DNA of 35,248 bases, taken from a virus. Its lineage: Duplodnaviria > Heunggongvirae > Uroviricota > Caudoviricetes. The position numbers and the translations under genes were made by a program. The notes beneath the pieces are model-generated. The model saw nothing but the letters and a program-made list of their open reading frames with translations. It was not told where the DNA came from and ran no database searches. The stretch is taken from IMG/VR virus record IMGVR_UViG_2563366961_000002, positions 1 to 35,248 of that record. One strand, given 5' to 3'. Shown here one piece after another: positions 5,441 to 35,248 of the stretch (within the stretch, counting starts at the first letter, position 1; each line of letters opens with the position of its first letter).

Positions 5441-5463
5441 GCTTCTTCATGTGCGTAGAAAAG

Positions 5464-5897: not shown

Positions 5898-5929
5898 TGC
5901 CACCAGCTACTGAGCGGTGGCATTTTTTT
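5898..5929 (+). terminator. putative rho-independent terminator
   Basis: TGCCACC-loop-GGTGGCA hairpin followed by T7. Confidence 0.5.
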
Positions 5930-6024
5930 GTGCTATTTGTTTCATATTTTGCAATTACGATGATGAATATTGCGATTTGTGAAACTATAATAACTGTTGT
6001 TTTATACAGTTCTAAGGGGGCGTT

Positions 6025-6186
6025 ATGGCTATTTCAGTAAAGCCGGTATTGATAAGTGAGAAGCAAATGGAAGCGATAAAGAAAATTCAGGAAGAGCAGC
6101 GTAAAAAATCAGGAATTGGAGTAGCGCCAACTCTGCATGAAATTGCACGAGGGTTAATAGATAAGGCGCTGGCAGGCTGTATGTGA
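6025..6186 (+). CDS. small ribbon-helix-helix-like DNA-binding protein (53 aa), absent from ORF track
   Basis: ATG 12 nt after AAGGGGG; MAISVKPVLISEKQMEAIKK... beta-strand then two helices. Confidence 0.45.
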   Translation: MAISVKPVLISEKQMEAIKKIQEEQRKKSGIGVAPTLHEIARGLIDKALAGCM

Positions 6187-6202
6187 AAATGGATGGCATC
6201 GC

Positions 6203-6664
6203 ATGGAACTAAAATTTATTGATAACCCTGTGCGATTACAGGCCTTTCTTAACGAGCCAGGCAATACCGAAAATATTGTTGAGCCGGGGCACACGTACTA
6301 CATCAAGCCTGATGCGGTATATCTCGGCATCTACGAAGGATTAGTGCTGGCTGGCGTTCATGAAGTGCGTAACTTCTGGCATAGCGTTGTTGAATGCCAT
6401 GCGGTGTACGACCCCGGATTCCGTGGTGAATATGCACTGCAAGGACATCGATTATTCTGCAAATGGCTTCTCGAAAACTCACCATTCCTTAACAGCATTA
6501 CCATGGTTCCTGACACCACGAAATACGGACGGGCAATTATCCGTTTGCTTGGCGCTACCCGTGTTGGTCATCTTGATGATGCTTATATCAGATGTGGTAA
6601 ACCCGTCGGCGTAACGCTTTATCAGTTAACTCGGCAACAATATAAGGAATTCAGCGAATGTTAA
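6203..6664 (+). CDS. hypothetical protein (153 aa)
   Basis: ORF whose stop overlaps next start (ATGTTAA). Confidence 0.5.
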   Translation: MELKFIDNPVRLQAFLNEPGNTENIVEPGHTYYIKPDAVYLGIYEGLVLAGVHEVRNFWHSVVECHAVYDPGFRGEYALQGHRLFCKWLLENSPFLNSITMVPDTTKYGRAIIRLLGATRVGHLDDAYIRCGKPVGVTLYQLTRQQYKEFSEC

Positions 6665-7335
6665 TTACCCATATAGCTTATAAACATCTCAATCGTGCCG
6701 TATACGAAAAAGGCGGTGATGGTGGTGCCTCTAAAGCTCAGGCGAAGGCCCAGCAGCAGGCAATTGATTTGCAGCGCGAGCAGTGGAATACGGTGATGAA
6801 TAATCTCAAGCCGTATGCAGAAGTCGGATTGCCTGCTTTACAACAACTACAAGGACTGATGACTCTGGAAGGGCAGAATAAAGCCGCGAATGATTTCTTT
6901 GGTTCTGGTTTATATAAAACACAGGCAGATCAGGCCCGTTATCAGAACCTTGTCTCAGCAGAAGCTACCGGGGGGCTTGGCTCAACAGCTACCAGTAACC
7001 AGTTATCTTCCATTGCGCCCATGCTTTATAACAATTGGCTCAGTGGGCAAATGCAAAATTATGGAAACCTGCTAAATGTCGGGATGAATGCGGCATCAGG
7101 GCAGGCAACAGCAGGGCAAAACTACGCCAATAATACCGGACAACTCTTGCAGGGGCTTGGCGCTATTCGTGCAGGTCAGGCGCAGCAGCCATCCAGTCTT
7201 GCGCGTGGTATTGGTGGGGCGGCATCAGGCGCTTTAGCGGGTGCGCAACTTGGTTCCGTTGTTCCGGGTATAGGTAATGTCGCCGGGGCTATTGGTGGTG
7301 GGCTTATTGGTCTTGTTGGGGGGCTTGGATTCTAA
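6658..7335 (+). CDS. Gly/Gln-rich protein with hydrophobic Gly-zipper C-terminus
   Basis: AAGGA upstream; C-terminus GIGGAASGALAGAQLGSVVPGIGNVAGAIGGGLIGLVGGLGF; stop overlaps next start (TAATG). Confidence 0.55.
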   Translation: MLITHIAYKHLNRAVYEKGGDGGASKAQAKAQQQAIDLQREQWNTVMNNLKPYAEVGLPALQQLQGLMTLEGQNKAANDFFGSGLYKTQADQARYQNLVSAEATGGLGSTATSNQLSSIAPMLYNNWLSGQMQNYGNLLNVGMNAASGQATAGQNYANNTGQLLQGLGAIRAGQAQQPSSLARGIGGAASGALAGAQLGSVVPGIGNVAGAIGGGLIGLVGGLGF

Positions 7336-8079
7336 TGGCGACATGGCAACTTGGCGGGCTGCCTAGCATGGCACCGCAAAATGATAATGCTCCTCGTTCT
7401 TCCGTTCCTCAGCCTGTGCAGTATCAGCAGCAGCCAAACGTAGGTTTAATGGCGCTACAGGGGCTAAGAGGCGTTGCTGAGATTAATCAGCAGGCACGTC
7501 AACAACAGCGTAAAGCAGAGTTTCAGAAAGCATATGCCGGGGCTTTTGAGTCTGGAGACAGAAACAAAATGCGCAGTCTTATTTCTGAGTATCCAGAAGA
7601 ATTTGAAAGCGTTCAGAAAGGGATGGGCTTTATTGATGACGACCAGAGAAATTCTATTGGTCATCTTGCGACTAGTGCTCAAATCGCATCTTCGCTCGGA
7701 ACTGGGGCATTTGGAAAATTCATAGCAGATAACGAAGATGAAATGCGTCGTTTGGGAATTTCTCCTGAGTCTGTTGCCGAAATGCATGTTAATGATCCAC
7801 AGGGATTCCAGCGGCTTGCTGGTAGTATGGCACTGTTTTCTCTCGGTCATGAGAAGTACTTCGATATCAAAGATCGAATGGAAGGTCGGGATATTGAGCG
7901 TGGCAAGTTGGCAGAGACGATCCGCAGCAATCAAGCCGGAGAAGCACTTCAGGCGAGAGGGCAGGATATTAGCCGAGCAAATGCGTTAACGTCAGCATAT
8001 GCACCAACAGCCGCAATGCAGAATTACAATCAATACGCGCAAATGTTAAAGGCGGATCCAGAGGGGGCTGCGGCATTTG
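7335..8079 (+). CDS. hypothetical protein, 3' end interrupted by IS1
   Basis: Frame runs into IS1; stop codon TAA 8082-8084 is supplied by IS1 terminal bases. Confidence 0.5.
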
Positions 8080-8094
8080 GGTAATGACTCCAAC

Positions 8095-8598
8095 TTATTG
8101 ATAGTGTTTTATGTTCAGATAATGCCCGATGACTTTGTCATGCAGCTCCACCGATTTTGAGAACGACAGCGACTTCCGTCCCAGCCGTGCCAGGTGCTGC
8201 CTCAGATTCAGGTTATGCCGCTCAATTCGCTGCGTATATCGCTTGCTGATTACGTGCAGCTTTCCCTTCAGGCGGGATTCATACAGCGGCCAGCCATCCG
8301 TCATCCATATCACCACGTCAAAGGGTGACAGCAGGCTCATAAGACGCCCCAGCGTCGCCATAGTGCGTTCACCGAATACGTGCGCAACAACCGTCTTCCG
8401 GAGCCTGTCATACGCGTAAAACAGCCAGCGCTGGCGCGATTTAGCCCCGACATAGCCCCACTGTTCGTCCATTTCCGCGCAGACGATGACGTCACTGCCC
8501 GGCTGTATGCGCGAGGTTACCGACTGCGGCCTGAGTTTTTTAAGTGACGTAAAATCGTGTTGAGGCCAACGCCCATAATGCGGGCAGTTGCCCGGCAT
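8095..8598 (-). CDS. insB: IS1 InsB (expressed as InsAB' by frameshift)
   Basis: 167-aa ORF overlapping insA 3' end in the -1 frame. Confidence 0.9.
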
Positions 8599-8792
8599 CC
8601 AACGCCATTCATGGCCATATCAATGATTTTCTGGTGCGTACCGGGTTGAGAAGCGGTGTAAGTGAACTGCAGTTGCCATGTTTTACGGCAGTGAGAGCAG
8701 AGATAGCGCTGATGTCCGGCGGTGCTTTTGCCGTTACGCACCACCCCGTCAGTAGCTGAACAGGAGGGACAGCTGATAGAAACAGAAGCCAC
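8517..8792 (-). CDS. insA: IS1 InsA
   Basis: 91-aa ORF with the InsA zinc-finger N-terminus [16 protein letters not shown]. Confidence 0.9.
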
Positions 8793-8856
8793 TGGAGCAC
8801 CTCAAAAACACCATCATACACTAAATCAGTAAGTTGGCAGCATCACCGGGTGATTA

Positions 8857-16029: not shown

Positions 16030-18440
16030 AACACGGAAAACCTTAAAATTAATTATTGGGGTATTTAAGGGTATTTTCAGGTGATTTAAGGGTATTAAAC
16101 TTGATTTAATTGATTAAAATATAAACAGATAGTTGTGTATCTTATTGATTTATAAGGTTATTTTTAAATAAAGGTAAATAAAAAATAAATAGCCATAAAT
16201 AGCTATAAATACATCTAAATACCTATATCCCTTCCCTTATGGCTAGATTGCGAGAGGTGCTTAACGCGATTTTCAGCGCCCCCCGATCTGGAAAATCCAG
16301 AATCCCCAAATATCAGCAAGGAATTTTCTTGCGTAATCAACATCGTTTTTACCTATTAAATCATTACACAGAAAGCCTTTCTGTAATGTCTCTCACTAAA
16401 CTTTCACTAAACACGAGAATGATCGGTTTTATGTCGGATCAGATGCTAGAAACAGCACCACGTCTCACAAGGACTGTAAGCGATGAAACCAGTGTTTATG
16501 CGGGTGCAGGTCAAAATATAGGCCAAAATCAATTTAACATAATAAACGTAATATGCACTAAGGAATACATAGAACGCCTTGAGTTGATGTATCAGGGGGG
16601 AAAAATGATGGATTTTTTACGTAGGAGCACGAGAGGGCTTCTGTTGACTTTTGTATGCTATGAAACATAATTAAAGGTTTTTTTGTTTTTATTGTGTGAT
16701 GTAGTGGATTACACAGGGGAATAGATTAAATGGTGTTCTGTTTATACAGGTTTATTTGTTAGATCAACAATTTGGCATTTCTAAACAGATGTTTGAACGT
16801 TGCCAAATGTCTTGACAACACAAGAAAAGGGCTTGCTATGCCACGCATTACACGAAATAAGGCTGTAAAAACAAAATAAATTTTAAAATTTGCACAAACG
16901 AGAAAACTCGTTAAGAAACAAGCAGAACAATTTTTAGCCAACAATTTCTGATGGTGCTCTGTAGGCCGCACTACACAAGGATTTGCGAAAGTGATGTAAA
17001 AGTGAAGAAAGTAAGAATTGCACTTTTAAGCTACTTTTCATTGAATTTTTAGTATGGAATTACACAGGAATAAGTTAGGGATATTCTATGATTTACACAG
17101 GGAATATAGGGGATTATGGCACACACATAGAAAGGCATTACACAGAGTGAGTGCTATGTGATGATTGGTAGTAACGGTAGGTCATAGTGAGCTAGGGGGT
17201 AGGTCACTGTGAACTACAATAAGACTATTAATAAAACTATATTAGATTATTAATTAGATCATAATAATAATATTCTTTATATCTATATATATGATCTTTT
17301 GCCTTCCGGCGTTAGCTTCACTCTCTGGCAAGCAGCCTTACTCCGCTACCTTTCGGGCTTCGTGGCTGGCCCGTTCCGCTCACACCGAAAGCAAAGCGTT
17401 ACTTTCTTCGTGTAACTTCGTTGGCGGTAACGCCCACGAAGAAATCTATTGCGCTGTGCGCAGTAAGAGTAATCACCTAACCAATCATACTGATTGCTTA
17501 TGTGTTAACTCTCTCTAACTCTTAATTACCCTCCTACATTTAATAACTCTGTTATTCTCTGTAGTTGTGTAATTACTCGAAGAGAGAGCGGCTAAAGCTC
17601 AATTACACTCTGCTTTCCTCGTGTAATTTCACTAAGCCTCAATACAATTTCACTTCCTACATTCTGTAGTCGTGTAATTGTTTTCGGTGGAAAAGCCAGA
17701 GGCGACACCGAAAGAGAATTCTGATCTTATTAATCTTATCTATCTTAGTTAATCTTCTTACTTATCTTACTTACTTTATCTACTTTATTATTAATAATAG
17801 CTTTATAAGCTCTCTGTGTAGCTCTCTGACGCAAGAAACAGCATTCAGGAAGGGAATCACCTTAGAAAAGGTGTTCTTTGCGTCATAATGTGTTTTATGA
17901 AGGATTCAGAGGTGTTTCATAACAGGAATGTATAGAGAATACTTTAGGTAATTAAAAATAAGGGGTCTAAATGCTTCTCTAACAGCATTAAGCAGGGTAG
18001 GGAATGGAAACGCATTGCCTACATATAATAAACTCACTACAGGGCTTTACAGGGCGTTTTATAAAGTGACTCTCTGTTTTATATCTACAATCACCTTTTC
18101 ATATACCTAACAAATACAAAATAAGCCCCTTAAATAAGCCTCTGGCGAGCTAAACAGACATTACATAAGAGAATGTATTGCTTTTATCAAAACTTCGTTA
18201 GAACGCGTTTTAGAGCGTTTTAGCGGATAATGAAGAATAGCACTACACAGAAGAGCACGAATTGCCAAGACAAATTATAACATGCTGAAAAAGATCGATT
18301 TTTTCGAAAAGGGTATTGACAAATGTTTCTTTATATGTAATAATAGGTATTAGAGGGACAGAAAAACATTCTTCTCTAAATAATCAAAATCAATGCACTT
18401 TGAAGCCGTCAGGCTTGCAAGGTGTTTTATTTCTTTTAAC
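16030..18440. promoter_or_regulatory. AT-rich non-coding origin/control-like region with iterated motifs
   Basis: No convincing ORF; repeated TTTAAGGGTATT, ATAAATAG, YATTACACAG (both orientations), GGTAGGTCA and TTATCTT runs. Confidence 0.4.
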
Positions 18441-18457
18441 TGAATAAGGAGTTTTTT

Positions 18458-18646
18458 ATGAAATGGTTTACACCGGAGCACGTCGTAAAGGCATTTAAAA
18501 AAGGTGAGCTTACACGCCACCAAATAGTAATGAATCGTAATATGGCAAGGAGTCGAGGTTATCCAGAGCGAGCAGCTTGCTTCAATGAAGCACTCAAGAT
18601 TATTGATGAACTAAGAAAAAATGAAAAAGAATCTGAAACAGAGTAA
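18458..18646 (+). CDS. hypothetical small protein (62 aa)
   Basis: ATG 8 nt after AAGGAG; first gene after the non-coding region. Confidence 0.5.
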   Translation: MKWFTPEHVVKAFKKGELTRHQIVMNRNMARSRGYPERAACFNEALKIIDELRKNEKESETE

Positions 18647-18665
18647 AGAAGAGAAGGAGAAAACT

Positions 18666-18836
18666 ATGAGCGAAGCTACAGAAAAGAAAAGACAACCACG
18701 CACTTGCTTTCATATTCCTGATGAAGTATTTCAGGTGTTGTTTAAAGAAGCCAGAAGTAAACGTATCACTGTTACAGATTACATTCTTGATATGTTGAAA
18801 AGAGAGGCTGAAACACTCTCAAATAAAAGCAAGTGA
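18666..18836 (+). CDS. RHH (CopG/Arc-like) DNA-binding protein
   Basis: Internal ATG after GAAGGAG; RTCFHIPDEVFQVLFKEARSKRITVTDYILDML. Confidence 0.5.
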   Translation: MSEATEKKRQPRTCFHIPDEVFQVLFKEARSKRITVTDYILDMLKREAETLSNKSK

Positions 18837-18889
18837 TTTTTATCACCATAGTAGCGCCATAGAGCGTGATTACATCAAGGAGATTTTTA

Positions 18890-19582
18890 ATGATTAACCA
18901 ACTAACTTTTACAAAACACTATGACACGTTTGATAATATATCAAAGATTTATTCTGATAAATTCCCTCAAGGAAAAGATTTAGATCTATTACATATTGTG
19001 CTTTATTTTCGATTCCTTAGTTATCAGGAAAACAACCTTAATTGTTATGAAAGTCACGAAACATTAGCTAAGATTTTTAAGTCTTCACCATCAACAATTA
19101 AACGTAAGATAAACGATCTTAAAGAGATGGGATTATTAGAAACATCCCCACATCCTGATCCGTATATTTCATCTTTGATTTACAATGCTCTCCCTCTCAC
19201 AGATGCACATATTACTCCCCCAGGAGAATCATCACTCTCTGATCTTTCTGAGGCAGAAGAAGCACAGGAACAACCTAAAGGCCATAAACAGCCTTCTTTT
19301 GATGTTCTTGATGATGATTGGGATACGCCTTTACCCTGGGAGACGGAAGAAACACCTGTTTCATCAAGTGAAAAGGTAGCTAATGATAATGAGGAGGATG
19401 TGTTAGAGAATTTTGCCTCTCTTATCATCCAGGAGAAACACAAAAGAACAGGAGGGGCATCATTTATAGAATTTGCAAATTCACTAGCTTGTAGATACGG
19501 GCTAAAACGACCAAATGGTATTGAGGCATATTTTTCTAAGCATTACCCAAATGTATACGAAGACTTTGATATTCCCTTTTAA
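18890..19582 (+). CDS. winged-helix protein, candidate replication initiator
   Basis: ATG after AAGGAG; wHTH-like LAKIFKSSPSTIKRKINDLKEMGLL; acidic C-terminal half. Confidence 0.5.
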   Translation: MINQLTFTKHYDTFDNISKIYSDKFPQGKDLDLLHIVLYFRFLSYQENNLNCYESHETLAKIFKSSPSTIKRKINDLKEMGLLETSPHPDPYISSLIYNALPLTDAHITPPGESSLSDLSEAEEAQEQPKGHKQPSFDVLDDDWDTPLPWETEETPVSSSEKVANDNEEDVLENFASLIIQEKHKRTGGASFIEFANSLACRYGLKRPNGIEAYFSKHYPNVYEDFDIPF

Positions 19583-19598
19583 AAAGTAAGGAGGACTA

Positions 19599-19877
19599 TT
19601 GATACAGTATTTAATAAAAAGCAAAGTAGACAGAATTCAGTGTAACGACACAGGAAAACGCATCTACGAAACGCTTGCTTACCTCTATAAAGGAAAGCCA
19701 ACACCGCTAAAATATAGCGATGTGTTACATCGAGCAGGTTGCTCTGAGTCAGGTTTAAAATTCTGGCTGAAACAGCTATCAAATTTCGGTGTTATTGAAA
19801 TGAAAGAGCTGTCTTTCTCTACATTTAATCTCAAAAGACTAGATAAAGAAATAGAATTCATCTATTCCACTCTCTAA
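19599..19877 (+). CDS. hypothetical wHTH-like protein
   Basis: TTG start 5 nt after AAGGAGG. Confidence 0.45.
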   Translation: MIQYLIKSKVDRIQCNDTGKRIYETLAYLYKGKPTPLKYSDVLHRAGCSESGLKFWLKQLSNFGVIEMKELSFSTFNLKRLDKEIEFIYSTL

Positions 19878-20009
19878 AATCTCTCTATGTAATTAAAATA
19901 TAAAAGGAAAACATTATTATGATAGTAGCTATGTATTGGTTATTGTTCTTTCTCACGTTAGAAGCATATTTCGGGGTGTTTTCCTTTAAAAGAAAAGGAA
20001 AAGTAAATT

Positions 20010-20420
20010 ATGGCAAAAAGAAAAAACAACGTTGTTAAGAAAATCGGTGATTCAGCTTCTCTTCTAAGTAAACCTAAATCTATTCTAAAACGTAAAGACT
20101 TTAAAGAGCTAGTTACGCTCACCAAGCATAATAGCGCCCCTGGCGAATGGAAAACAGAGATCATAGAACATTCTCCCTCTGTGCCTTGTGGAGATGAATA
20201 TATCGCCTTACAAGAAATCTTATCTTCAACACCTGGCGTGTTCTGGAAACCTAAAAAAAGAAAAGAGTATATCGTTGATAGCTCTGATTTACGCAAATAC
20301 CAGATTTTAGGATTTGAAGATTATAATCACTACGTTGGTTATCTCGCCACAAATGGCCTAAATAATTTAGTTCCTGAATTCCAGATTTTAGATAATGCAG
20401 ATCACTATGGAGACTTTTAA
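20010..20420 (+). CDS. hypothetical protein (136 aa)
   Basis: ORF with AAAGGAAAAG upstream. Confidence 0.5.
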   Translation: MAKRKNNVVKKIGDSASLLSKPKSILKRKDFKELVTLTKHNSAPGEWKTEIIEHSPSVPCGDEYIALQEILSSTPGVFWKPKKRKEYIVDSSDLRKYQILGFEDYNHYVGYLATNGLNNLVPEFQILDNADHYGDF

Positions 20421-20421
20421 T

Positions 20422-20760
20422 ATGAACAAAAACACGTATGACACAATTTACTCACTAATTAATTATTATGAGGATGATTACCTCCTGCCTTTAAACCGCG
20501 CTGAACTTGAAGCATACAAAGAAAACACGCCAGCGGCACTAAATGAGGCGTTTAAACACTGGGATTTAGCTGTGAATGCCTTTGAGCACCTCTCTAAGCG
20601 TGTAGAGATGCTCTGTAAGCGCGAAAACGCATACCTGACAGCCGATCAGGTATGGGAATTATCAAACTGGATAGAAGATATTGAATCTGATGTTCGCTAT
20701 GTGGGAGATGGACTTGTTGAACTAGCGCAACGCTTAGGCGCTACTATCACAGAAGAATAA
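20422..20760 (+). CDS. hypothetical protein (112 aa)
   Basis: ATG 8 nt after GGAG, immediately after upstream stop. Confidence 0.5.
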   Translation: MNKNTYDTIYSLINYYEDDYLLPLNRAELEAYKENTPAALNEAFKHWDLAVNAFEHLSKRVEMLCKRENAYLTADQVWELSNWIEDIESDVRYVGDGLVELAQRLGATITEE

Positions 20761-20789
20761 AAAAAGCAACAAAAAAGTTGTAAAATATC

Positions 20790-20818
20790 TTGACATTCCA
20801 TCTATTGTATGTTAATAT
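20790..20818 (+). promoter_or_regulatory. sigma70-type promoter
   Basis: TTGACA, 17-bp spacer, TAATAT. Confidence 0.5.
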
Positions 20819-21010
20819 AATTATATAGGGGTGATTATTTTTCCTTTATTGGTTCGATATTAAAAATTCTTCCTGTCATTAAAGGGGAGTAAAATCTCCG
20901 CTCCCCGCTTCTTCTCCTCCTTAAGTAAATACTGTGCCATTATACCTCTTTGTTATGCATACATCTTGGAGTATGCATAACATAGGGTAATTACATAGGT
21001 ATGAGTTAAT

Positions 21011-21042
21011 AAAAGGCGGCTTTAAATGCTGCCTTTTATTTT
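21011..21042 (+). terminator. putative rho-independent terminator
   Basis: AAAAGGCGGC-loop-GCTGCCTTTT hairpin then ATTTT. Confidence 0.45.
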
Positions 21043-21104
21043 GCCCGTTATACAACTTAAAAGTTGTATTTCTTACTTTAAACAAGGTAACAAGGTTTAT
21101 ATAA

Positions 21105-21317
21105 ATGTTGCTCTTAAATGATAAAGAGCAAATCATCAAGTATAAAGATGAAATGCTGAAAATTAATCCACAAATTACCGAAATGGTAGCTAAATACGCT
21201 GGGTGTTCTGTCGAGGAAGTAGAAAGATGTGTTGAAAAATATTTTTCTCCTTCTTCTCCGTCTACACCTTCCCTTAATGAATTAATCAAATTAAAAGCTA
21301 AGGAGATTACTAAATGA
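21105..21317 (+). CDS. hypothetical small protein
   Basis: 70-aa ORF; stop overlaps next start. Confidence 0.45.
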   Translation: MLLLNDKEQIIKYKDEMLKINPQITEMVAKYAGCSVEEVERCVEKYFSPSSPSTPSLNELIKLKAKEITK

Positions 21318-21676
21318 TTATTGATTTAGACACTCTGTTTCCAGTTCGAAAGACTTTCACGGATATTGTAAGTTATTGTACTGATCCGTTTGCCTCTGTA
21401 GAAAGCAAGGTTTTTGCTTCTCTTCCTGCTGATGTTGAGTGCGGCGACTTGATCACCAGCACTGGCGCTAAATATGAATCAGGAGATGATATTTATGTTG
21501 TTATGAGTGAATTTGTAACGGCTGGAGAAAACAAGCCTGTAGATGTGCTACGTAGCAATGCTGGGCTTGTATGCATCAAAGCTGATGCGCTGAATGCTGT
21601 AAGTGAAGCAGCAAAAACAGCATTAATTAAAAAAGGCTTTCAGCTTGAAGGGTTCCATTCTGTTTTCACTTCTTAA
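21314..21676 (+). CDS. hypothetical protein, possibly head-associated
   Basis: 120-aa ORF immediately upstream of the capsid-like gene. Confidence 0.45.
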   Translation: MIIDLDTLFPVRKTFTDIVSYCTDPFASVESKVFASLPADVECGDLITSTGAKYESGDDIYVVMSEFVTAGENKPVDVLRSNAGLVCIKADALNAVSEAAKTALIKKGFQLEGFHSVFTS

Positions 21677-21694
21677 TAAAAGGAATAATAATAA

Positions 21695-22723
21695 ATGATT
21701 CTAGGTAATGATTACGTTGATTTAGCTCCTCTGTTCTCTGCGCATAGCACTAGAAATTATCTACTTTCTACTCTCGACTTCACTGATCCGGTGGGCGTTA
21801 GTTCTCATAAAGTAGCTGTTTCCCAGCTTGTCGAAAGCAACGAATCTCTCTTTAACAAAGAGACAAGCCGTTTTAGTTCTGAACACAATGTTACTAAGCG
21901 AGAACAAGGTAAAGAATGGCTGATCGAAATCCCTTACTTCCTGCGTGAAGATGTGATCCGTCCTTCTGATGTTCAAGGCAAGCGTAAGCCTGGCACTGAT
22001 TTTCAGGAAACACTCACTGATATTTATGCTGACTATGTTGCTAAACACCACGTAGCGTATCAGCGTACAAAAGAGAGCGTGCTGGCTGCATCTCTGTTTA
22101 GCGGTAAAACTTACACGCCTAAAACTGATGATGTTCTTATCGAGTGGAGCAAGCTGTTTAACGTATCAGCTATGAAAGCCACTGTGAACGCTTCCAGCAC
22201 TGACACCACGAAGATTTTTAAAGAATTTGATCAGATTGCTACTGACATTATCGAAAAAGCACAGAGTCAGGCGGCGGCTGTAGAGCGAATTGTTGTTTTC
22301 TGTAAGCCGGAAGCCTTCTCTGCAATTCGATTCTCTGCTGGTATGGCAAACGCATTCCAGTATGTAAGCCCACTGGAAGAGGGGAACGTTGTGTATCAGC
22401 GTCGTGACCTGCTGCCAGGGGTGACAGCGTTCACTATTCCAGGAACTAACATTGATGTTGTTAAACTGGTAGATCCGCTACACCTGGCACATATGACCGC
22501 AGACGCTGTAGCTGTGCCTAAATTCTCTAAGGGTAGCGGAATTTATACCAACATCTACGGGGCTGCTTCCAGCACCTTTGAACTGATTAATGCCGCTCCT
22601 GCTGAGGTGTATAGCTATAGCTATGAATCTTCTCGTGGTGATGCTGTTAACGTTGTTACAGAGAATAGCCAGATGGTGGTAAACCACGGTGTAGGCTTCT
22701 CCGTTCAAATCACTGTTAAATAA
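21695..22723 (+). CDS. putative major capsid-like protein (342 aa)
   Basis: Strong terminator directly downstream; size and weak local resemblance to lambda gpE-type capsid proteins (from memory). Confidence 0.45.
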   Translation: MILGNDYVDLAPLFSAHSTRNYLLSTLDFTDPVGVSSHKVAVSQLVESNESLFNKETSRFSSEHNVTKREQGKEWLIEIPYFLREDVIRPSDVQGKRKPGTDFQETLTDIYADYVAKHHVAYQRTKESVLAASLFSGKTYTPKTDDVLIEWSKLFNVSAMKATVNASSTDTTKIFKEFDQIATDIIEKAQSQAAAVERIVVFCKPEAFSAIRFSAGMANAFQYVSPLEEGNVVYQRRDLLPGVTAFTIPGTNIDVVKLVDPLHLAHMTADAVAVPKFSKGSGIYTNIYGAASSTFELINAAPAEVYSYSYESSRGDAVNVVTENSQMVVNHGVGFSVQITVK

Positions 22724-22741
22724 TATTTTAACGTGTAATAG

Positions 22742-22777
22742 AGGCGTGGCGTGAATAACACGCTTCGCCTTTTTTTA
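22742..22777 (+). terminator. rho-independent terminator
   Basis: AGGCGTGGCGTG-aataa-CACGCTTCGCCT followed by T7. Confidence 0.6.
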
Positions 22778-22809
22778 TTTATTTTTAAATTTTGAGAGGT
22801 GATTAAAAT

Positions 22810-23013
22810 ATGGAAGTGATTTTGAAATCAAAAAATGGTGTACACGTACATTTAGATGCTAATGATTCTAGAGGATTGTTAAATCTGAAATATCTCTGTT
22901 CTCTTTTAGATGTTCCCTATGAAGGAGTAAAAGCCCGTATGTTCAGATTAAACGAGAGTATTGATCAGGCTCTACACCATTTCTTAAGCAAAGAAGGTGG
23001 TAAAAATGATTAA
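22810..23013 (+). CDS. hypothetical small protein (67 aa)
   Basis: ORF with GAGAGGTGA upstream. Confidence 0.45.
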   Translation: MEVILKSKNGVHVHLDANDSRGLLNLKYLCSLLDVPYEGVKARMFRLNESIDQALHHFLSKEGGKND

Positions 23014-23027
23014 TAAGGGGATTTTAA

Positions 23028-23921
23028 ATGTTAGAAATTAACACTTCTAAAATTAAGAACACAGTAACATTTAGTGTAGATAAAGACAGCTTGAAAAAAG
23101 CGAAAGACTCTATTACAGGCTTAAAGGAATTTGCAGAGAATATCAAGCCAGCTAAGTTAAGGTTTGATAATGTCACTAAAGGCTATAAGAAAGCACAAAG
23201 TGAAGTAGACAAGATTGCTCAACAGAAAGCTAAAGCCGAAAAACAGAATCAAAGAGTACAAGCTGCCGCAGCAAGAGCACAGGCAAGGCAACAGCAACAA
23301 ATAGCAGCACGTAAAGAGAAAGCAGAATTAAAACTCCTCGATGTGTCAAGCTCTATCAGTGCAATGCACCGTCTCTCTGTAGCTGAACAATACAAAGCTA
23401 TTGCACAGGCTAGAGAAATTGCCCTCCAATATGAAAGAGGCGCTATTAGTCTGGCACGTATGAATAGCCAGATGAAACGCTTACAACAGCAACAACGTAA
23501 GATTAATGGCAACAGAAAAGCACAATTAGCCCCCGTTAAGGGAGGATCAGGGAATTCCGCCACTATGGGCGCTCTGTTATTTGGAGGCGCTACGGCTGCT
23601 GCTGGCGTGATGGCTGTTAGTAAAGCGTCGGAGTTTGTTAGTAGCAGTTTCGCTAACGCAGAGACCCAAGGGGAGCTAATCCAACGTGCAAGGCTTGGCG
23701 GTGTAGACGTTAACCAGATGTATAATATTACAGAATGGGCGTATAGAAACGGCGTTGACTCTATGATGGGTGATCAAGGGGCTAGGAAATACCTGGATCA
23801 GATGAAAGATGTTAGGGAACGTGCCGCAAAATCCTACAGTGAAGCTGAATTGGTGAAAGACAAGAAAACCGGAAAATCTGAATGGAAAGGCGGTGATAAT
23901 GCTATTAATGAACTTCTAAAC
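23028..23921 (+). pseudogene. N-terminal fragment (298 codons) of a 609-aa coiled-coil protein disrupted by IS2
   Basis: Reading frame continues in phase across the IS2 target duplication to 25258-26193. Confidence 0.7.
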
Positions 23922-23932
23922 TGGATTTGCCC

Positions 23933-24838
23933 CTATATTTCCAGACATCTGTTATCACTTAACCCATTACAAGCCCGCTGCCGCAGATATTCCCGTGGCG
24001 AGCGATAACCCAGCGCACTATGCGGATGCCATTCGTTATAATGCTCGAACGCCTCTGCAAGGTTCTTTGCTGCCGTTAACCCGTCTGGTTTGGGCATGAT
24101 ACTGATGTAGTCACGCTTTATCGTTTTCACGAAGCTCTCTGCTATTCCGTTACTCTCCGGACTCCGCACCGCCGTGTTCTTCGGTTCAAGTCCCAACATC
24201 CGGGCGAACTGGCGTGTTTCATTAGCCCGGTAGCATGAACCATTATCCGTCAGCCACTCCACTGGAGACGACGGAAGATCGTTGCCGAAGCGGCGTTCCA
24301 CCGCTCCCAGCATGACGTCCTGTACTGTTTCACTGTTGAAGCCGCCGGTAGTGACCGCCCAGTGCAGTGCCTCACGATCACTGCAGTCCAGCGCGAACGT
24401 GACACGCAGTCTCTCTCCGTTATCACAGCAGAACTCGAACCCGTCAGAGCACCATCGCTGATTGCTTTCTTTCACGGCCACTCTGCCTGTATGTGCCCGT
24501 TTCGATGGCGGTACAGCAGGTTTTCGCTCAAGCAACAGCGCATTCTGGCGCATGATCCGGTAAACACGTTTGGCATTGATCGCAGGCATACCATCAAGTT
24601 CTGCCTGTCTGCGAAGCAGCGCCCATACCCGACGATAACCATACGTGGGCAGCTCTCCGATAACATGGTGTATACGGAGAAGCACATCCGTATCATCAGT
24701 GTGACGACTGCGGCGGCCATCCATCCAGTCATCGGTTCGTCTGAGAATGACGTGCAACTGCGCACGCGACACCCGGAGACAACGGCTGACTAAGCTTACT
24801 CCCCATCCCCGGGCAATAAGGGCGCGTGCGCTATCCAC
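23933..24838 (-). CDS. insD: IS2 OrfB (InsD) DDE transposase
   Basis: 301-aa ORF overlapping orfA end; retroviral-integrase-like catalytic domain. Confidence 0.85.
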
Positions 24839-25161
24839 TTTTTTGCCCGTCCATATTCAACGGCTTCTTTGAGGAGTTCATTTTCCATCGTTTTCTTGCC
24901 GAGCAGGCGCTGGAGTTCTTTAATCTGCTTCATGGCGGCAGCAAGTTCAGAGGCAGGAACAACCTGTTCTCCGGCGGCGACAGCAGTAAGACTTCCTTCC
25001 TGGTATTGCTTACGCCAGAGAAATAACTGGCTGGCTGCTACACCATGTTGCCGGGCAACGAGGGAGACCGTCATCCCCGGTTCAAAGCTCTGCTGAACAA
25101 TTGCGATCTTTTCCTGTGTGGTACGCCGTCTGCGTTTCTCCGGTCCTAAGACATCAATCAT
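24796..25161 (-). CDS. insC: IS2 OrfA (InsC)
   Basis: [25 protein letters not shown]... HTH protein, 121 aa. Confidence 0.85.
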
Positions 25162-25252
25162 CTGCTCTCCAATGACTAGTCTAAAAACTAGTATTAAGAC
25201 TATCACTTAAATAAGTGATACTGGTTGTCTGGAGATTCAGGGGGCCAGTCTA

Positions 25253-26193
25253 TAAACATCGGTGTTATTAACAAAAGCGACCTTAAAAAATTTGCTGATA
25301 ATCCGGCTGGATTAATTTCTAAGGCTGTTAATGGAATGATGAAAAAAGGGTTTTCAGACTCCCAAATTGGACAACGTTTAGAAGACCTGGGCGATGATTT
25401 GATGCTTACGTCAAAATATTGGCAACGTTCCGTTAAAGATGTACAAGAAAGTATTAATCAGCAAAAAGCCTCTGGAAAATGGCTAACAGAAACACAGCAA
25501 GACTCTATTGTTAAATTCAGAGAACTAAACAGACAGCTTTCACAGCTTTCTGATGCAAGACAAGTAGCATTCGTAGACGGCTTTATGAAATCTCTCGATC
25601 CAAAAGTAACGGAAGAGTTTATGAAAAACCTTTCTAATCTCACTCCGTATTTTACGAAGCTGGGAGAAGCTACAGGAAGTCTCTTTGAAGCTATTATGAA
25701 GATTGTAAACTGGTTTAATCGTAATGATGATAAGACAGATGCTATTCAGAAAAATATGGGTGATGCACCGCCATTAAGCAATGAAGGGATGAAACAGAAT
25801 CTTTCTAATCTCGTTCCTAATCAATATAAAGGCGCTGGCACTGCAACAACTACACCTGATAATAGTCATTCTCTCTTTAACACAATTAAGGGATTGCTTT
25901 TCGATGATAATTCTTCTGTGTCAGATGTAAAAATGTCAGTCAATGAAGCACCGATAACCAATCTCAAACAGGGTGCTTTAAATAATCTTGCAATGACAAC
26001 TCCAGCTTATAATTTATCTCCTGTGTTTAATCTGAATCCTACATTTGAAGTGGTAACAGAAGTGCCGCTAACTATCGAATCAGACACCGGACGATTGAGC
26101 GATTATGTGGATTTTACAGCGAGAGCAAGTCGGGATAGCTTCTTGAAATCATTAACATTAACCAGCTTATCAGGACAATCCAACGGCGGGTAA
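25253..26193 (+). pseudogene. C-terminal fragment of the IS2-disrupted 609-aa protein
   Basis: In phase with 23028-23921 through the duplicated TAAAC. Confidence 0.7.
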
Positions 26194-27022: not shown

Positions 27023-28357
27023 CTATGGCGTTGTTTTGCGCATTAAATTTGATTTTTTATTGATTGATAAGCCTTTCTCTATTTCAGGGTAGCGTAGAAG
27101 CTCAATATAGTTTTTAAGCTCTACTGGAGAAGCTGCATTCTTGCTATATGTGCGGAATGTCTCTGTATTGCCGCGTGTATGGCCCAGGAGAAGGGCGATC
27201 CTGTCTTCTGGAATTTGATTTCGATCAAGAAGCTGTGCTACTCCGTGTCTCAGAGAATGAAACACCTTCCTTTCTGTTCCCTTTTCCCCTAAAGCCTTTC
27301 GTTTAGCTCTTGTAAATCTCTGCGTGTGCCACGTGGAACGTTTACCATCAGCACGCTCTGTAATGCTGGCGTGATAGAACAAAAAGCCATTATGAGGCTT
27401 TTCACGCAGCGACAACACCAACGGAGTGATAAGGCTATGCACAGGCACAAGACGTGCCGCAGCTTTCGTTTTTCCCTGTGTGATTTCAAAACACAGCACA
27501 CCTTCGATCTCTTTCACATCGTCTATTGTGAGACTTGCTATCTCATTGATCCGCATACCTGTATAAGCACCGATAAGACACAAAGCCATCATTTCTTTGT
27601 TTTCTGCTGAATCACCGGAAAATACTTGCAACACCTGCAATAGCTCTTTGTTAGAAAATGCCTCGTAGCTCTCTCTACTTTGTGCCACATCAAGCCTATG
27701 CCCTCGCCAGGGGGAGAGCGCCCTTTCTGGCGCATCGTGGTAACGTGATGAAGCTAACTCCCATAGCTGGGCCATTGGGCTGATATAATTTGCAATTGAT
27801 TGTTGTGAAAGGGTTTTTTGCATGTGTTCTATCCAGCCTGTAACAGTGGTGCGGCTTACATCTTGCAATGCAATATCAGGCTTTTTACGGTAGGAGAGAA
27901 ACATCTCTACCGCTTTTCTTGCCTTAGCTAAAGTGGCTGGCTTCTTCTTCGTGCTGTTAATTGTCAGGTAGATTTCAAGAATTTTAAGCAATGACGGACA
28001 CGAAGACGCTGTATCTTGCATTCTGGTAGCTGTTTTGGCGTATTTAGCCTTACTGCGTAACAGTTCCAGCGTGTTCTCTATTGTGCTGTTTACAGGGGCG
28101 ACACTCTCCCGTAGACAATGGTATTCATCTGCAATCTGATCACGCTTTCTACGTGCAACACGAAGACTACTTGTGTGCAGACTTCTGACAAACGTCCTTT
28201 TTCCTTCAAAAAAGGGCTGCATATACACAGGCAACGTGATCCTCAAATAGTAGTTACCGTAAGAATCACAGATTATGTATTGATTGGGCTTGTATCTCAT
28301 AAACTCCCCGGCTAAAGTGTCGGAGCGTTTGTAATGTGAAAATTGATTGTAACGCAT
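27023..28357 (-). CDS. tyrosine recombinase / phage-type integrase
   Basis: R (RINEIASL), HxxR (HSLRHG) and H...Y (GHTRGN...RTYSK) catalytic pattern; a second ATG at 28300 has the better RBS (GGGGAG). Confidence 0.85.
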   Translation of the reverse strand: MRYNQFSHYKRSDTLAGEFMRYKPNQYIICDSYGNYYLRITLPVYMQPFFEGKRTFVRSLHTSSLRVARRKRDQIADEYHCLRESVAPVNSTIENTLELLRSKAKYAKTATRMQDTASSCPSLLKILEIYLTINSTKKKPATLAKARKAVEMFLSYRKKPDIALQDVSRTTVTGWIEHMQKTLSQQSIANYISPMAQLWELASSRYHDAPERALSPWRGHRLDVAQSRESYEAFSNKELLQVLQVFSGDSAENKEMMALCLIGAYTGMRINEIASLTIDDVKEIEGVLCFEITQGKTKAAARLVPVHSLITPLVLSLREKPHNGFLFYHASITERADGKRSTWHTQRFTRAKRKALGEKGTERKVFHSLRHGVAQLLDRNQIPEDRIALLLGHTRGNTETFRTYSKNAASPVELKNYIELLRYPEIEKGLSINKKSNLMRKTTP

Positions 28358-29917: not shown

Positions 29918-30247
29918 TTATAACGGTGTCAGCCCGTATTTAGCTCTTGCACGATTGCAAGCCTCATTGACGACTCCGTTCTCACCAGACATGGCGAATT
30001 CTCTGCACGTGGACGATCGATTTTTATATATCGTGCAACAGGCATTTTTGCCCGGTGTTCCTGCAAGGGCAATACATCGGGGGTTTTTCTGATTGGTACC
30101 GCTCATGCATCGGTGAAAAGGGGATATTTGTTCAGTAAGCCTGGCGGGAATGGTACCGCCAGCATCGTCGGCTTCGGCCCAGTAAAAAGAGACGCGGAAA
30201 AATGCACAACAGGCACCACACGTCATGCATGGATTCAGATTGCTCAT
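29918..30247 (-). CDS. ykgJ: YkgJ, Cys-rich ferredoxin-like protein
   Basis: 109-aa ORF with CMTCGACC and further Cys clusters; expected neighbour. Confidence 0.8.
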
Positions 30248-30559
30248 AATTCACCAGTACAGCTATAAATCGTAAAGAGAACTGCGGTACGTCGTATGCA
30301 GGGACGTATCGCGGTTGGCTGGTGTACTTTCGATAGTGTGAGTATTGAATGATTTCCAGCCGTTACCGATTTTACGTCCTAATTCGTGAAGAAACCACTC
30401 GTTAGCAGGCCGCCTGGTACCTTTCCGTGTCTCCTGAACACTGTGGTGTGCATATGAGAAAGCTCATCGTTACAGGTGACATTGACGATCGCTTCCACAT
30501 CATTTAAACGATTTTTGAGTCTCTGAGGTAGAATTCTTCCCTCGTCTGATGGATAAGTC

Positions 30560-31269
30560 TTAGTCCGCCGAAGGGGGCTTAGCCGGACAGGAATCGCTAA
30601 TCTTAATGAATTTGTCGTTATAGACCAGATAGTGATTCCCCGGCTGACGTAACTCAGGCTGATGAACCACGTCTCCCGGACGTAGATACCAGGCATCGCC
30701 TTCCTCTTCGGTCGAATCACATCCTGGTTTAATCAGTAGCTTAAACCACGTGTTGCCGGTGTTACTTACCGCTCCGGTCACCTGATCGAAGGACCATTTA
30801 AACTGAACCTGACGTGGTCGTACTACCAGAATGGTATCCATCACCACCACCGGCTCTGTGCTGACCTCGCCGCCGGTTGGGCTACGTCTTGTCTGGTTGC
30901 GAGTGGGGACCTCGCGAATGAGACCCGGTAGTAGCGCTCGCGGTTATCCTGTGGACCATGATAGTAAAATTTAAAATACTCGCTCTCACCAGCCTGCAAC
31001 GCCAGCTGGCGGGGGGCGAAAAGCAGTTCACCATCCACCGGTCGAGTGCGCAATTCACTGCTGCCCGGGCTATCGATAGCACTGATGGCAATACGGTATA
31101 TCCGCGCGCTTTTGTTGTTATTCACTACACGTTTGCTGACAAAGTCAGTCTCGGACGGCAGCGAAAATGTCAGATTACCGACCGAAATCGCCTGTGTCAA
31201 AGGTGCCGCCAGCATACAGACCACTGTCAGCAGGGCCTTAGTTAATGTTACGCCACGTCGCCTGAACAT
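30560..31269 (-). pseudogene. ecpE: ecpE (fimbrial chaperone) split by an apparent 1-nt frameshift near 30916
   Basis: N-terminal part in frame of 30841-31314 ORF, C-terminal part in frame of 30560-30850 ORF; together span a full-length chaperone. Confidence 0.7.
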
Positions 31270-32881
31270 GAATCTCTCCTGAAGCGCTGACTTCGCCAAA
31301 CCAGCCGTTATCATCTACCGTACGCAGAGAAATGGCGTTATACATTGGAATCGAAAATTTGACTGTGGTCTTATCCATCTGCCCCACTTCGCCAGAGATA
31401 TCAGTCCACGGTGTGGTCAACCACAGCGCATCGGTCATATCCCGCCAGCTATCATCGCACCCGGCATCGTAGGTTTTTGTAGCTCCGTTGCGGGTAATAA
31501 AGGAAAGTGTCGCCGGGAACGGTACTTTCGCCTTACCGTCATCGGAGCTGAAGACACAATAGGAGCGCCCGCCAATCACCTGCGCGGGTCCGGTCACCTT
31601 GATCAGCACTTCGTCGGCAGCTGTTTTACCGCTGGTGGTTACGATATAGCCGAAATCGAGTGCCGACTCGCCGCTGCCAACATATCCCTCCCGCGACGGT
31701 GTCTGAGTATATTCATCGGAGATAATACTGATGCTGAAATCACGGGGTTTGATAATCAGCGTGTTGGAGGTAGAAAATTCATACCAGCCAGACTCCGGTG
31801 ATGTGGTGTTCTGAAAGCGAAAGTTGAACAGATCTTTGGTGTTGATATCGCTGATCCCCAGGTTCACCATCTGCTTAAAGAAGTTGCTCGAGAAGAAAAC
31901 ATAGATCGAGTCTGCGCTCTTCATCTCGTTGAAGGTGTAGTAATAGGCGGTATTGCTCACCGGTTTCCATGAACTGCCATTCAGACTGAACTGCATATCG
32001 TACGCCCCGACGGCCGAGGCTAACGACGAGTTGGCGATCGCCGGGAAGATATGGATTGAGGTGTTGCTGAGCCCGTTTGTTTGCAGGGTATAGTTAACCA
32101 TCTTACAACTTAATCCTGAACGGCTGCCGATGGTTTGCGTCCGGCAGTCGGCGTTCCCTTCGCCCAGAGTCGGTACTCCGTCGCTGTTGATAAATACTTC
32201 CGCCAGCGAGTGGGTATTTATCAACCGCAGATTTGCTGCTTTCGTATGGGTGACGTTGCGAACATACCAGTTGCCGGAGGCCTGATCCTTACAGCGTGCG
32301 CCGCTGCTGGCATCATAGTTCACAGAGGTCTGGCAGGCATTGATGGTCATTGTAAAGCTGCTGCCGACGGGCATTTGTTGCAGATACTGGTAAAACGCGT
32401 CTGACAACATGCCGTGCATCCACTTCGCGCCGCCGCTGGTCACCGTCGCGCCATAAAATCCACTGGCGTCGGTGGTTTGCGGCAGGATAAGACTGGTGGT
32501 CATATTACACCCAGCGTACCAGTTGATGCAGCGCAAGCCAGTTAAAGGAGATGAAACTGGTGAATTTTCCAGCCACATATCAAACTTCCAGTTGGTATAA
32601 AGGCCGGTGTTGTAACCGTTATCAATGTAGCCGAGGCTTTGCTGATAGATGGTTCCTGAACCATTGTATTTTAAACCGGTCCAGCGGTTGGCACCGGTCA
32701 GGCGCGGATCCAGCGCCCCGCCAGGCGTGACGAAAAAGTTGTCGTCTGAGTTGTTTTCGACAAACACAAACTCGCGTGCCGGAGCATCCGCCCAGGTTGT
32801 TTTGCTCACTGCCGCTCTGAGCGCGGTTGCAGGCCAGATTAGCGCAAAGATTATCATCGCTATCAGTAAGTTAACTCTCAT
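31238..32881 (-). CDS. ecpD: EcpD, E. coli common pilus tip adhesin
   Basis: 547-aa ORF with signal peptide [23 protein letters not shown]; operon position. Confidence 0.85.
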
Positions 32882-35154
32882 TCTCTTCTCCTGTCTGCGT
32901 CACCGCCGCCCACGATGAGAGGCCGCTGCAGACCACATCACCGACCCAGACGGCACCGCGCGCCTGGTTGAGTTCCAGTGCCACTTCGCAGGTTTTATTG
33001 CCACTGTAGCGAAAATCGATAGTGGGGTATTTCTTATCCACGTCCATGACAAACTCGCCGTTTTCATCGGTTCGGGTTCGGCCGATATGGTTGTTAATCC
33101 GTGCGTTAGCCAGCAGTGTGCCGTCTTCCGCACGGATACGACCGGAGACGGTAACCATCTGCTTCACCTCTGGCTCAATGACAGCGACATTGCCTGGATA
33201 GAGAGTCAGATGACTTTTGCGACCGCTGACGATATCGTAACTGTCGAGTGAGTTTTTGCTGTTCTGTAACTCCACCTCATATCTTCCATAGGGAGAGAGC
33301 GGGAGATAGTTACGCTTGCCGTTAAGCGGGAAAATCCGCCCGTTGATTTTGGCGCTGATCTGACCATCGTTCTCCAGGCCAGTGTCGAATATCACCCCAG
33401 CGTTGCCATCGGTCCGCCCGCTGGCAGCGATGTTTTTACCCTGCCAGCCGACGCTGCCGTTGGCGGTCAAATTAGTATTGATGTAGCCGTCCGCCGCGCT
33501 ATTGACGTTCAGCGTTCCGCTGGCGTAACGAGCGTCGAACTGTGCATACGCCCCACCACTGAGAGTTTTGTCATCACCGGTATCGCCGGAGATGGCTCGT
33601 GACAGATTGGCACCAACAGTGCGAATGGTCCCTTCATCAAACTGTTTGCGTGCTGACAGGTTTGCCATGGTGTAGCCGTTTTGATGGGTCATCCCTGCGC
33701 TAAACCAGTTGCCCAGTGGTAGCGAGAGATCGAGAGCGATATATTTTCCTGTATTGGCGCTGCTGTCGCCGTTGTTATAGCGCTGAATACCGGCCCGCAG
33801 GCCAAGCGTACCAAAGGTACCGCTGTAGACACTTTGATAGTAATCTGCCGTGTAATAATGGCTGTTGTAACGGCGGTCATCATTGTAGCTGATGCTGAAT
33901 GTGCCCAGCTTCGACCACAGTGAGTTCAGGTTGAGTGTGCCGCCGATTGCACGGTTGTCGGCATCGCTACGTCGCAATTGATTGCCAATGCGGGTTTTTT
34001 CCTGGTTAACCCACAGCGAACTAAAGCCTCCCGGTAGAGTGGCGCTGATGCTGGCGATGTTGCTCCATGAGCTGTCACTGGCCAGCATATTTTGCAGGTT
34101 AACGTTGATCGCTCCCCCAAGCGGCAGCGTCAGACGGGTTTCACCCACCGCCTGATTATCGTATCCATATCCCGTTGCCGCCCAGCTAAGCGTACTCAGT
34201 GAGCCGGAGGTCGAGGCACCTGCCAGCCAACTATCTTTAGCTGGTCGCGTCTTTTTCCCGTTTTCCGACCAGCGATCCATATGAAAGCTACCGCCCCATA
34301 TCTGCCACGCCAGTGGTGCACCGACGCCGCGCCCCCGGCTAAACAGCTTATTGACCCGTTGAGTGCGTTTGCTAATCACGCGACCGTTAACGATGACCTC
34401 AACTTCCACATCGTAAATACCGTACGGTAGACCCCGGGTATCCACTTCATGATTGCCCATGGTGAAGTTCTGAACGCTTAGTAACCGCCCATCACGGGTG
34501 AGATGTACTTCGCCCGCCGCCGGTAAAAAGGCGATCACTGGCGTGGCTGACTGGCTGCTGTCGAAGATGGTGGAGCTGGCCTGGTTTCCCCAGGAAAGGC
34601 CGTAAATCTTCCCTGCTGAAATGGCGGTCATCGGCCCTAAGGACTGCAAGTTCCAGGTGTCGAGCATTCCACCGGCAAATCGGTGACCGGCAAAATCGCG
34701 TTCATACATCGCTTTATATAATTCACTGTCCTGTTGACCGCTACCGATCCCGTACAGCGAGCCGTCGAGCACCACATGATGTTCGCGCAGTGCAGTAACG
34801 TTATTCAGCGACAGATAGCTGGATGTGTTGCTCCCGCCGTTACGCAACTGGTTGTTATAGACGCCGAAGTTATAGCTCAGATTACTGCTGAGGGTGTTAA
34901 CACTGGACTGCCCGATGTCTTCGCTACGTGAGCGTAGTACGGTGCCCAGCGCTTCGCGCTTGACCACCAGCTGCAGCAGCAGTTGGCGCAAGCTGAGATC
35001 CAGCTGCGCGTTGTCAGTCAGGGGGATGGTAAGGGCCTCATTGAACGGGGCGTTGGCCAGAGTCATCAGTTGCTGTCGAGTTTGTTCGCTGACACTGGCG
35101 TTATCTTCACTCTCTTCCAGCTGTATTTTCCGGATGCGTAGCTGTCCATCATCC
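32871..35154 (-). pseudogene. ecpC: ecpC (usher), 5' end truncated by IS1
   Basis: Usher-like ORF runs directly into the IS1 end at 35155; N-terminal signal region missing. Confidence 0.85.
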
Positions 35155-35248
35155 GGTGATGCTGCCAACTTACTGATTTAGTGTATGATGGTGTTTTTGA
35201 GGTGCTCCAGTGGCTTCTGTTTCTATCAGCTGTCCCTCCTGTTCAGCT
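35155..35248 (+). mobile_element. IS1 5' terminal fragment (IRL end), truncated by window edge
   Basis: GGTGATGCTGCCAACTTACTGATTTAGTG... equals reverse complement of 8754-8847. Confidence 0.9.

Follow-up and report, generated by a model that had tools for sequence, protein, structure and literature searches.

A probable non-functional remnant of the Escherichia coli common pilus operon bounded by IS1 in a phylogroup F lineage

Can a copy of the E. coli common pilus (ECP, or Mat fimbria) operon that breaks off at an IS1 element still direct assembly of a pilus? The question is raised by a 35,248-nucleotide stretch of DNA, hereafter the window (IMG/VR virus record IMGVR_UViG_2563366961_000002), in which positions 30300-35248 hold ecpE, ecpD and ecpC, as identified by megablast against 5,426 complete E. 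coli genomes. All six genes of the system, ecpR-ecpA-ecpB-ecpC-ecpD-ecpE, are found in one operon (PMC4461329), and the window has only a shortened ecpC (ecpC'), ecpD and a disrupted ecpE (ecpE'). We conclude that the region is very probably a non-functional 3' remnant (ecpC'-ecpD-ecpE') of ecpRABCDE, carried by a phylogroup F sub-lineage related to sequence type 379 (ST379), in which a deletion came first and a frameshift followed.

Alignments to annotated ecp operons were obtained at 99.9-100% identity, and chance matching is not an issue at this level. Three full-length megablast matches included the IS1 junction, namely AF3 (NZ_OZ547117.1), which was 100% identical, and SCU-172 and MSB1_4I, each of which was one base longer. 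The locus resembles ECP operons, which belong to the alternative chaperone-usher class, in its gene order (ykgJ-ecpE-ecpD-ecpC) and in its DNA identity of 98-99.9% to intact copies. It differs in that the window has the distal half only, with ecpE frameshifted and with ecpR, ecpA, ecpB, the promoter and the 5' end of ecpC missing. An earlier sequence-only reading of this DNA had named the same three genes, and had described ecpE as split into two frames by a single-base indel near 30916, the ecpC usher gene as having lost its 5' end to IS1 at 35155, and ecpD as intact; the gene identities were borne out by the megablast comparison, and the three descriptions by the results given below. The features are as follows.

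29918-30247, minus strand: ykgJ, from an open reading frame (ORF) map of 29.5-35.2 kb
30560-31269, minus strand: ecpE pseudogene, second chaperone of the ECP system, 710 nt against 711
30916-30918, minus strand: frameshift site, AAA (TTT on the coding strand) reduced to AA at 30917-30918, coding-sequence nt 354, codon 118
30841-31269, minus strand: N-terminal ecpE fragment ORF, 142 aa from the annotated start, 118 native and 24 out-of-frame residues
30560-30850, minus strand: C-terminal ecpE fragment in the original frame, a 96-aa ORF from GTG, called as 93 aa by gene callers elsewhere
31238-32881, minus strand: ecpD, intact, tip adhesin and polymerising subunit, 547 aa, NCBIfam FimbAdhEcpD equivalog
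32871-35154, minus strand: ecpC', usher remnant without the first 242 nt, 'incomplete, missing N-terminus' in RefSeq
35155-35248, plus strand: IS1 left end (IS1A type), insA reading away from ecpC', the window ending inside the element

The usher gene is cut after position 35154. The missing 242 nt correspond to 80 codons plus 2 nt, and comprise the start codon, the apparent signal peptide and the first part of the N-terminal domain. In place of the full-length 841-aa EcpC usher with its signal peptide, ecpC' keeps 760 complete codons and retains the Pfam domains TcfC and CooC_C, shifted by 81 residues relative to the full protein. The gene is annotated by RefSeq as lacking its N-terminus in AF3, SCU-172 and MSB1_4I alike. 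An ORF of 765 aa (32871-35168, minus strand) opens at a TTG within the terminal repeat of the adjoining IS1.

IS1 measures 768 bp, has terminal inverted repeats (GGTGATGCTGCCAACTTA...) and carries insA and insB, which are read with a programmed frameshift. The left end of the element, GGTGATGCTGCC..., begins at 35155, and the 94 terminal bases of the window read GGTGATGCTGCCAACTTACTG.... These bases are the first 94 nt of a 768-bp IS1 in AF3, which ends GGTGATGCTGCC...GGAGTCATTACC and is annotated by RefSeq as an IS1A family transposase. The element therefore has the identifying features of IS1, with 94 nt of it lying within the window.

We used MS 21-1 (NZ_CP146670.1), in which ecpRABCDE is complete and the flanks are 99.9% identical, as the intact reference operon. 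Alignment of AF3 to MS 21-1 revealed the 768-bp IS1 in place of 2,346 bp (L005 16857-19202), made up of the following segments.

ecpC 5' end: 242 nt
ecpB: 669 nt
ecpA: 588 nt
ecpR: 543 nt
intergenic spacers: 156 nt
upstream of the ecpR start codon: 148 nt
total deleted: 2,346 nt

Transcription of ecp is reported to start 121 bp upstream of ecpR (PMC10038029), and with 148 bp of upstream sequence lost the promoter is therefore gone too. It is deleted in AF3, SCU-172, MSB1_4I and contig L011, and the corresponding region lies beyond the end of the window. Both IS1 junctions are identical in AF3, SCU-172, MSB1_4I and GCA_000407985.1; the left junction was present in exactly three of the 5,426 complete genomes, as well as in contigs L011 and L013-L015.

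A simple transposition of IS1 leaves a direct target duplication of 9 bp (8-11 bp). No target-site duplication was found across the AF3 element on comparison with MS 21-1, and the 9-mers flanking it, CCATCATCC and TAAGTTTTA, are unrelated. The lack of a duplication therefore points to an IS1-associated deletion and not to a simple insertion. Adjacent deletion is classical behaviour of IS1 in E. coli, as in the gal region, and the present case resembles it in that a single 768-bp IS1 stands exactly at the deletion site without a 9-bp duplication, with near-identical IS1 copies nearby and with other IS1-bounded inversions and small adjacent deletions in the lineage. The difference is that the end product alone is seen here, and it would be the same after an adjacent deletion as after two earlier IS1 copies in direct orientation had recombined.

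Does the deletion extend to the genome from which the window came? Two properties of the window weigh against taking this for granted. It stops 94 nt into the IS1, so that the far side in the source genome lies outside it. In addition, positions 1-8079 are structurally different from AF3, and the source genome is therefore not AF3: positions 1-91 are the end of another IS1, positions 92-8079 are a phage segment that AF3 lacks at the same position, and the junction between the two was found in no complete RefSeq genome. The last 16.9 kb of the window match AF3 exactly, with 100% identity over 30300-35248. The IS1 in the window's genome might thus be a simple insertion or the end of an inversion, with the 5' end of ecpC, ecpB, ecpA and ecpR surviving elsewhere in an operon that was split. 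Inversions between IS1 copies have indeed occurred in the lineage, in that contig L013 has phage genes beyond the IS1 and SCU-172 and MSB1_4I show an inverted arrangement.

We nevertheless regard a split operon as highly improbable. The sequence-only reading had pointed to the far side of the IS1 as the place where ecpB, ecpA and ecpR could lie; they do not lie there in any relative that shares the junction and has a readable far side (AF3, SCU-172, MSB1_4I, L011 and L013), being deleted instead. Among these, L011 has both junctions of the deletion and matches the window at 100% identity over 10.4 kb. The search for second copies concerned the sister genome AF3 (chromosome and 82-kb plasmid, with the 6.2-kb NZ_OZ547119.1 left out) and not the source genome itself. 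The AF3 chromosome has no ecpBA: a chimeric query, composed of a rare 2.4-kb island segment and ecpB plus ecpA, matched it at one place, whereas control genomes having both parts gave two places, and no second ecpBA was found. Likewise, an ecpE probe matched AF3 at a single place, giving no second ecpE, and no ecp genes were present on the 82-kb plasmid (plasmid 2). A full ecpC at another site, which the sequence-only reading had named as a finding that would overturn it, thus has no support from this indirect search of AF3. Moreover, an usher gene severed by IS1 would be non-functional even if its 5' part survived.

We therefore return to an IS1-associated deletion as the first step, which would have removed 2,346 bp and left one IS1, as is seen in the relatives and predicted for the window's genome. 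This step alone would put an end to transcription from the native promoter, to the pilus shaft and to the usher; of the genes lost, ecpA encodes the major pilin, ecpB a chaperone and ecpR the regulator.

The second lesion lies in ecpE. Base-by-base comparison of the window with SCU-172 over 30300-35248 (4.95 kb) revealed a single difference, CGCGAATGAG in the window against CGCGAAATGAG in the relative. This is a 1-bp deletion in a run of three A (three T on the coding strand) at 30916-30918, and the reading frame changes at codon 118 out of 236. The truncated product has 142 aa, consisting of 118 native residues and 24 out-of-frame residues before a stop; reading from an upstream ATG at 31314 extends this ORF to 157 aa (30841-31314). 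The ecpE of the window is 100% identical to that of AF3, which RefSeq labels 'fimbrial chaperone EcpE, frameshifted', while SCU-172, MSB1_4I and MS 21-1 have the intact allele of 236 aa (WP_016234627.1). The window thus lacks the intact second chaperone of an ECP operon. In profile searches the intact allele gave a weak match to PapD_N in Pfam (21 bits, below the 23-bit cut-off), and neither ecpE fragment matched any Pfam or NCBIfam family. Programmed frameshifting was considered as a means of rescuing ecpE and rejected, since a -1 shift is needed and the site, CTCATTCGCG, has no slippery heptamer.

A change of one base in the length of a short homopolymer may also arise as an error of sequencing or assembly, such as a homopolymer miscall, in which case ecpE would really be intact. 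The nearest complete relatives do have the intact allele, and among the 4,928 RefSeq complete genomes that hold the 61-nt stretch around the site the short allele was found in AF3 only, the other 4,927 being without it. A frameshift private to one assembly, and possibly erroneous, was however overturned by the finding of the exact 142-aa product in 219 indexed blocks of public assemblies; a look-up of the 157-aa alternative-start product in public assemblies gave nothing useful. In 22 of the 23 contigs that were read, the 142-aa product adjoined the truncated ecpC'. The carriers include GCA_000407985.1 (KE136785.1), GCA_964052565.1 and two gut metagenome assemblies from ENA, and match the window at 99.99-100% identity across about 10 kb. 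They differ from it by private single-nucleotide polymorphisms (SNPs) or by one inversion, and therefore represent separate samples.

The run itself has three bases only, and no other 1-bp indel separates AF3 from SCU-172 in about 60 kb. The 46 kb upstream contain 10 substitutions and one 3-bp in-frame indel, and ecpE provides the sole indel in the 14.7 kb around the locus, so that the AF3 assembly does not appear to be indel-prone. Since the same allele recurs in many independent assemblies, doubt at the level of reads is largely settled and a restored ecpE frame is unlikely. Taken together, an error at this site is extremely unlikely, and the frameshift allele is real and inherited in a sub-lineage.

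In which order did the two lesions arise? SCU-172, which is ST379 and belongs to phylogroup F (PMC11251922), and MSB1_4I both have the deletion together with an intact ecpE, indicating that the deletion came first and the frameshift later. The sub-branch with the frameshift would comprise the window, AF3, GCA_000407985.1, GCA_964052565.1 and the metagenome contigs. In this second step, a 1-bp deletion in the TTT run truncated EcpE at residue 118 in one branch of the deletion clade. The frameshift would functionally add nothing, and is most simply seen as neutral decay of a gene that was already purposeless.

One contig speaks for the opposite order. L012 (GCA_003604515.1, QZLL01000544.1) carries the frameshifted ecpE beside what seems to be an intact ecpRABC, and taken at face value places the frameshift before the deletion; SCU-172 and MSB1_4I would then have regained TTT by reversion or recombination. 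We consider this quite improbable, as the contig is a mosaic. Positions 1-2199 show one difference from a K-12 MG1655 record (by SNP binning), and positions 1-2119 differ from MS 21-1 at 46 sites (about 2.2%), while the remainder differs from K-12 at 142 sites and from the AF3 type at 4. L012 is thus K-12-like from ecpR to a switch point inside ecpC', 3-84 bp from the IS1 junction, and of the AF3 lineage afterwards. K-12 belongs to phylogroup A. The coincidence of the switch with the IS1 junction is what one would expect if two strains had been assembled together and joined at the edge of a repeat, and the contig comes from a fragmented assembly, in which it is record 544. L012 is therefore probably, to judge from this pattern, an assembly chimera from a mixed or contaminated sample, and its apparent frameshift within an intact operon was set aside for this reason. 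A natural recombinant, which would count against a deletion-first order, retains a small residual probability. A reversion in a dead gene, moreover, would be unselected. The order in which the deletion preceded the frameshift is thus the one that we adopt.

If the operon is decaying, why is ecpD intact? The encoded protein of 547 aa matched the NCBIfam equivalog model FimbAdhEcpD (NF047911) with 1014.7 bits against a cut-off of 900, over profile positions 2-538 of 538, and had no match in the Pfam copy used. A full-length EcpD tip adhesin, one feature of ECP operons, is thus present, alongside an EcpC remnant that keeps TcfC and CooC_C. The ecpD of AF3 is identical to the window at the DNA level and is annotated as WP_001265647.1, as are those of SCU-172, MSB1_4I and MS 21-1. 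The carriers diverged very recently (0-1 SNP in 6.7 kb), and AF3 and SCU-172 differ by about 13 substitutions over roughly 60 kb. The intactness of ecpD is thus most likely due to the short time that has passed.

What the remnant could still do was assessed from the established roles of the ecp genes in the operon (PMC4461329, PMC10038029). The promoter, EcpR, EcpA, EcpB and a translatable, exportable usher are lost, and for this reason no ECP would be assembled and EcpR would be absent. The inability to assemble this pilus, which the sequence-only reading had proposed on the condition that the lesions were genuine, is thus supported by inference from the truncated usher and the frameshifted ecpE, together with the deletion of ecpRAB and the promoter in the relatives. 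Given that EcpR is reported to repress flagellar genes (PMC10038029), its loss could also affect flagellar regulation.

Alternatively, the remnant might still be used, with ecpD, alone or with the ecpE fragments, being transcribed from IS1 or by read-through and serving a function independent of the pilus. In support of this, ecpD is fully intact, and EcpD is reported to self-polymerise (PMC4461329). The minus strand of 30200-35248 showed no sigma-70-like promoter, and hence none between IS1 and ecpE, and transcription of the remnant from IS1 was set aside on this ground. IS1 is, furthermore, strongly polar in both orientations. The usher has neither start codon nor signal peptide, the chaperone is truncated, and an intact ecpD is expected by chance at the low divergence among the carriers. 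Continued use is accordingly the least probable of the explanations considered, and we retain that of a non-functional remnant.

How unusual is such a locus? The lesions were already known in the sense that ecpE and ecpC are marked as pseudogenes by RefSeq in AF3, where PGAP labels ecpE as frameshifted and ecpC as incomplete (locus tags AC9VVF_RS24015 and AC9VVF_RS24025). The window, identical to AF3 over 30300-35248, differs in that it comes from another relative, whose first 8 kb are arranged differently. Our literature search returned nothing relevant on ecpC or ecpE with IS1, nor on MSB1_4I. The locus is an instance of ordinary gene decay, a textbook IS1-driven deletion followed by neutral decay.

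At least 80% of the ecpR-ecpA-ecpB segment is present in about 91% of the 5,426 complete E. coli genomes; in about 9% less than 80% of it is found, and 414 of the 5,426 had no match. IS1 is also annotated under the ecp match in the unrelated strains BEN5202, 10035776-3, PS2Canimalfeces12 and CEA106S; ecpC is annotated twice in BEN5202, and in CEA106S IS1A is listed with ecpR, ecpA, ecpB and ecpC. Among the complete E. coli genomes, sequence of the ecp operon also occurs in thirteen records labelled as plasmids, which could reflect mislabelled replicons or unusual mobilisation.

The carriers come from a UK blood culture (AF3), from US and Australian rectal swabs and from gut metagenomes. Could the loss of ECP and EcpR then be adaptive in this globally dispersed phylogroup F (ST379-related) sub-lineage? 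Possible benefits are the removal of a surface antigen or relief from EcpR-mediated repression of flagella. This is speculation about selection and we hold it to be doubtful, considering that ecpRAB is likewise reduced to less than 80% in about 9% of genomes and that IS1 in ecp recurs in unrelated strains. If it were true, the lineage would offer a naturally ecp-null model in which gut colonisation and the ability to invade the bloodstream are retained. A natural ECP-null, EcpR-null lineage from blood and healthy guts would in any case be a small data point against the indispensability of ECP for colonisation or invasion. On the practical side, virulence-gene screens that score ecpD, or partial ecpC or ecpE, as 'ECP present' will miscall the lineage.

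The window holds three IS1 copies (1-91, 8080-8847 and 35155-35248), and in AF3 a fourth follows after another 3.5 kb (L001 20328-21095). The copy at 8080-8847, named IS1-1, differs from IS1-2 at two positions only. IS1-1, in opposite orientation, has no target duplication (cggcatttg against gggtgatta), and in L013 its left flank is joined to ecpC', that is, by an inversion. In SCU-172 and MSB1_4I the phage segment 917-8079 is inverted and lies beside the IS1 near an oxidoreductase remnant, whereas AF3 is without the segment here. IS1 matched at least 40 places each in AF3, SCU-172 and MSB1_4I, against 20 in MS 21-1, which suggests an expansion of IS1 in the lineage.

Comparison of the regions around the IS1 between the oxidoreductase remnant and a LysR gene (L001 20298-21130, L002 20299-21160 and L005 21890-21975) showed a 9-bp target copy, CGTTTATTC, on the left in SCU-172 and on the right in AF3, where 31 bp to the left of the element are missing as well. 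We read these as probable traces of one simple insertion, after which IS1-mediated events took a different course in each of the two strains.

Positions 92-28300 of the window form a large degenerate mosaic island or prophage upstream of yagU, which lies between tRNA-Thr and yagU in AF3, SCU-172 and MSB1_4I and is missing in MS 21-1. Its genes encode an Ash-family protein, a primase with Toprim and DUF927 domains (2681-5440), a DUF2824 protein, a PerC-family regulator, P22 gp7-like and truncated gp20-like ejection proteins with a gp16-family protein (8857-10962), a major capsid protein, a baseplate protein and a tyrosine integrase (27023-28300). An IS2 at about 23922-25252 splits a phage gene, the halves of which are annotated in AF3 at 23028-23921 and 25252-26193. 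SCU-172 and MSB1_4I lack about 5.6 kb directly to the left of the IS2 (window ~18300-23921), suggesting an IS2-adjacent deletion in these strains.

Elsewhere in the AF3 chromosome, upstream of the part that corresponds to the window, positions 4679357-4729356 (L006) contain a complete and apparently intact Flag-2 lateral flagellar cluster between yafL/rayT and dinB. It includes lafA, lafU and second flh, fli and flg sets, and is also present in SCU-172 and MS 21-1.

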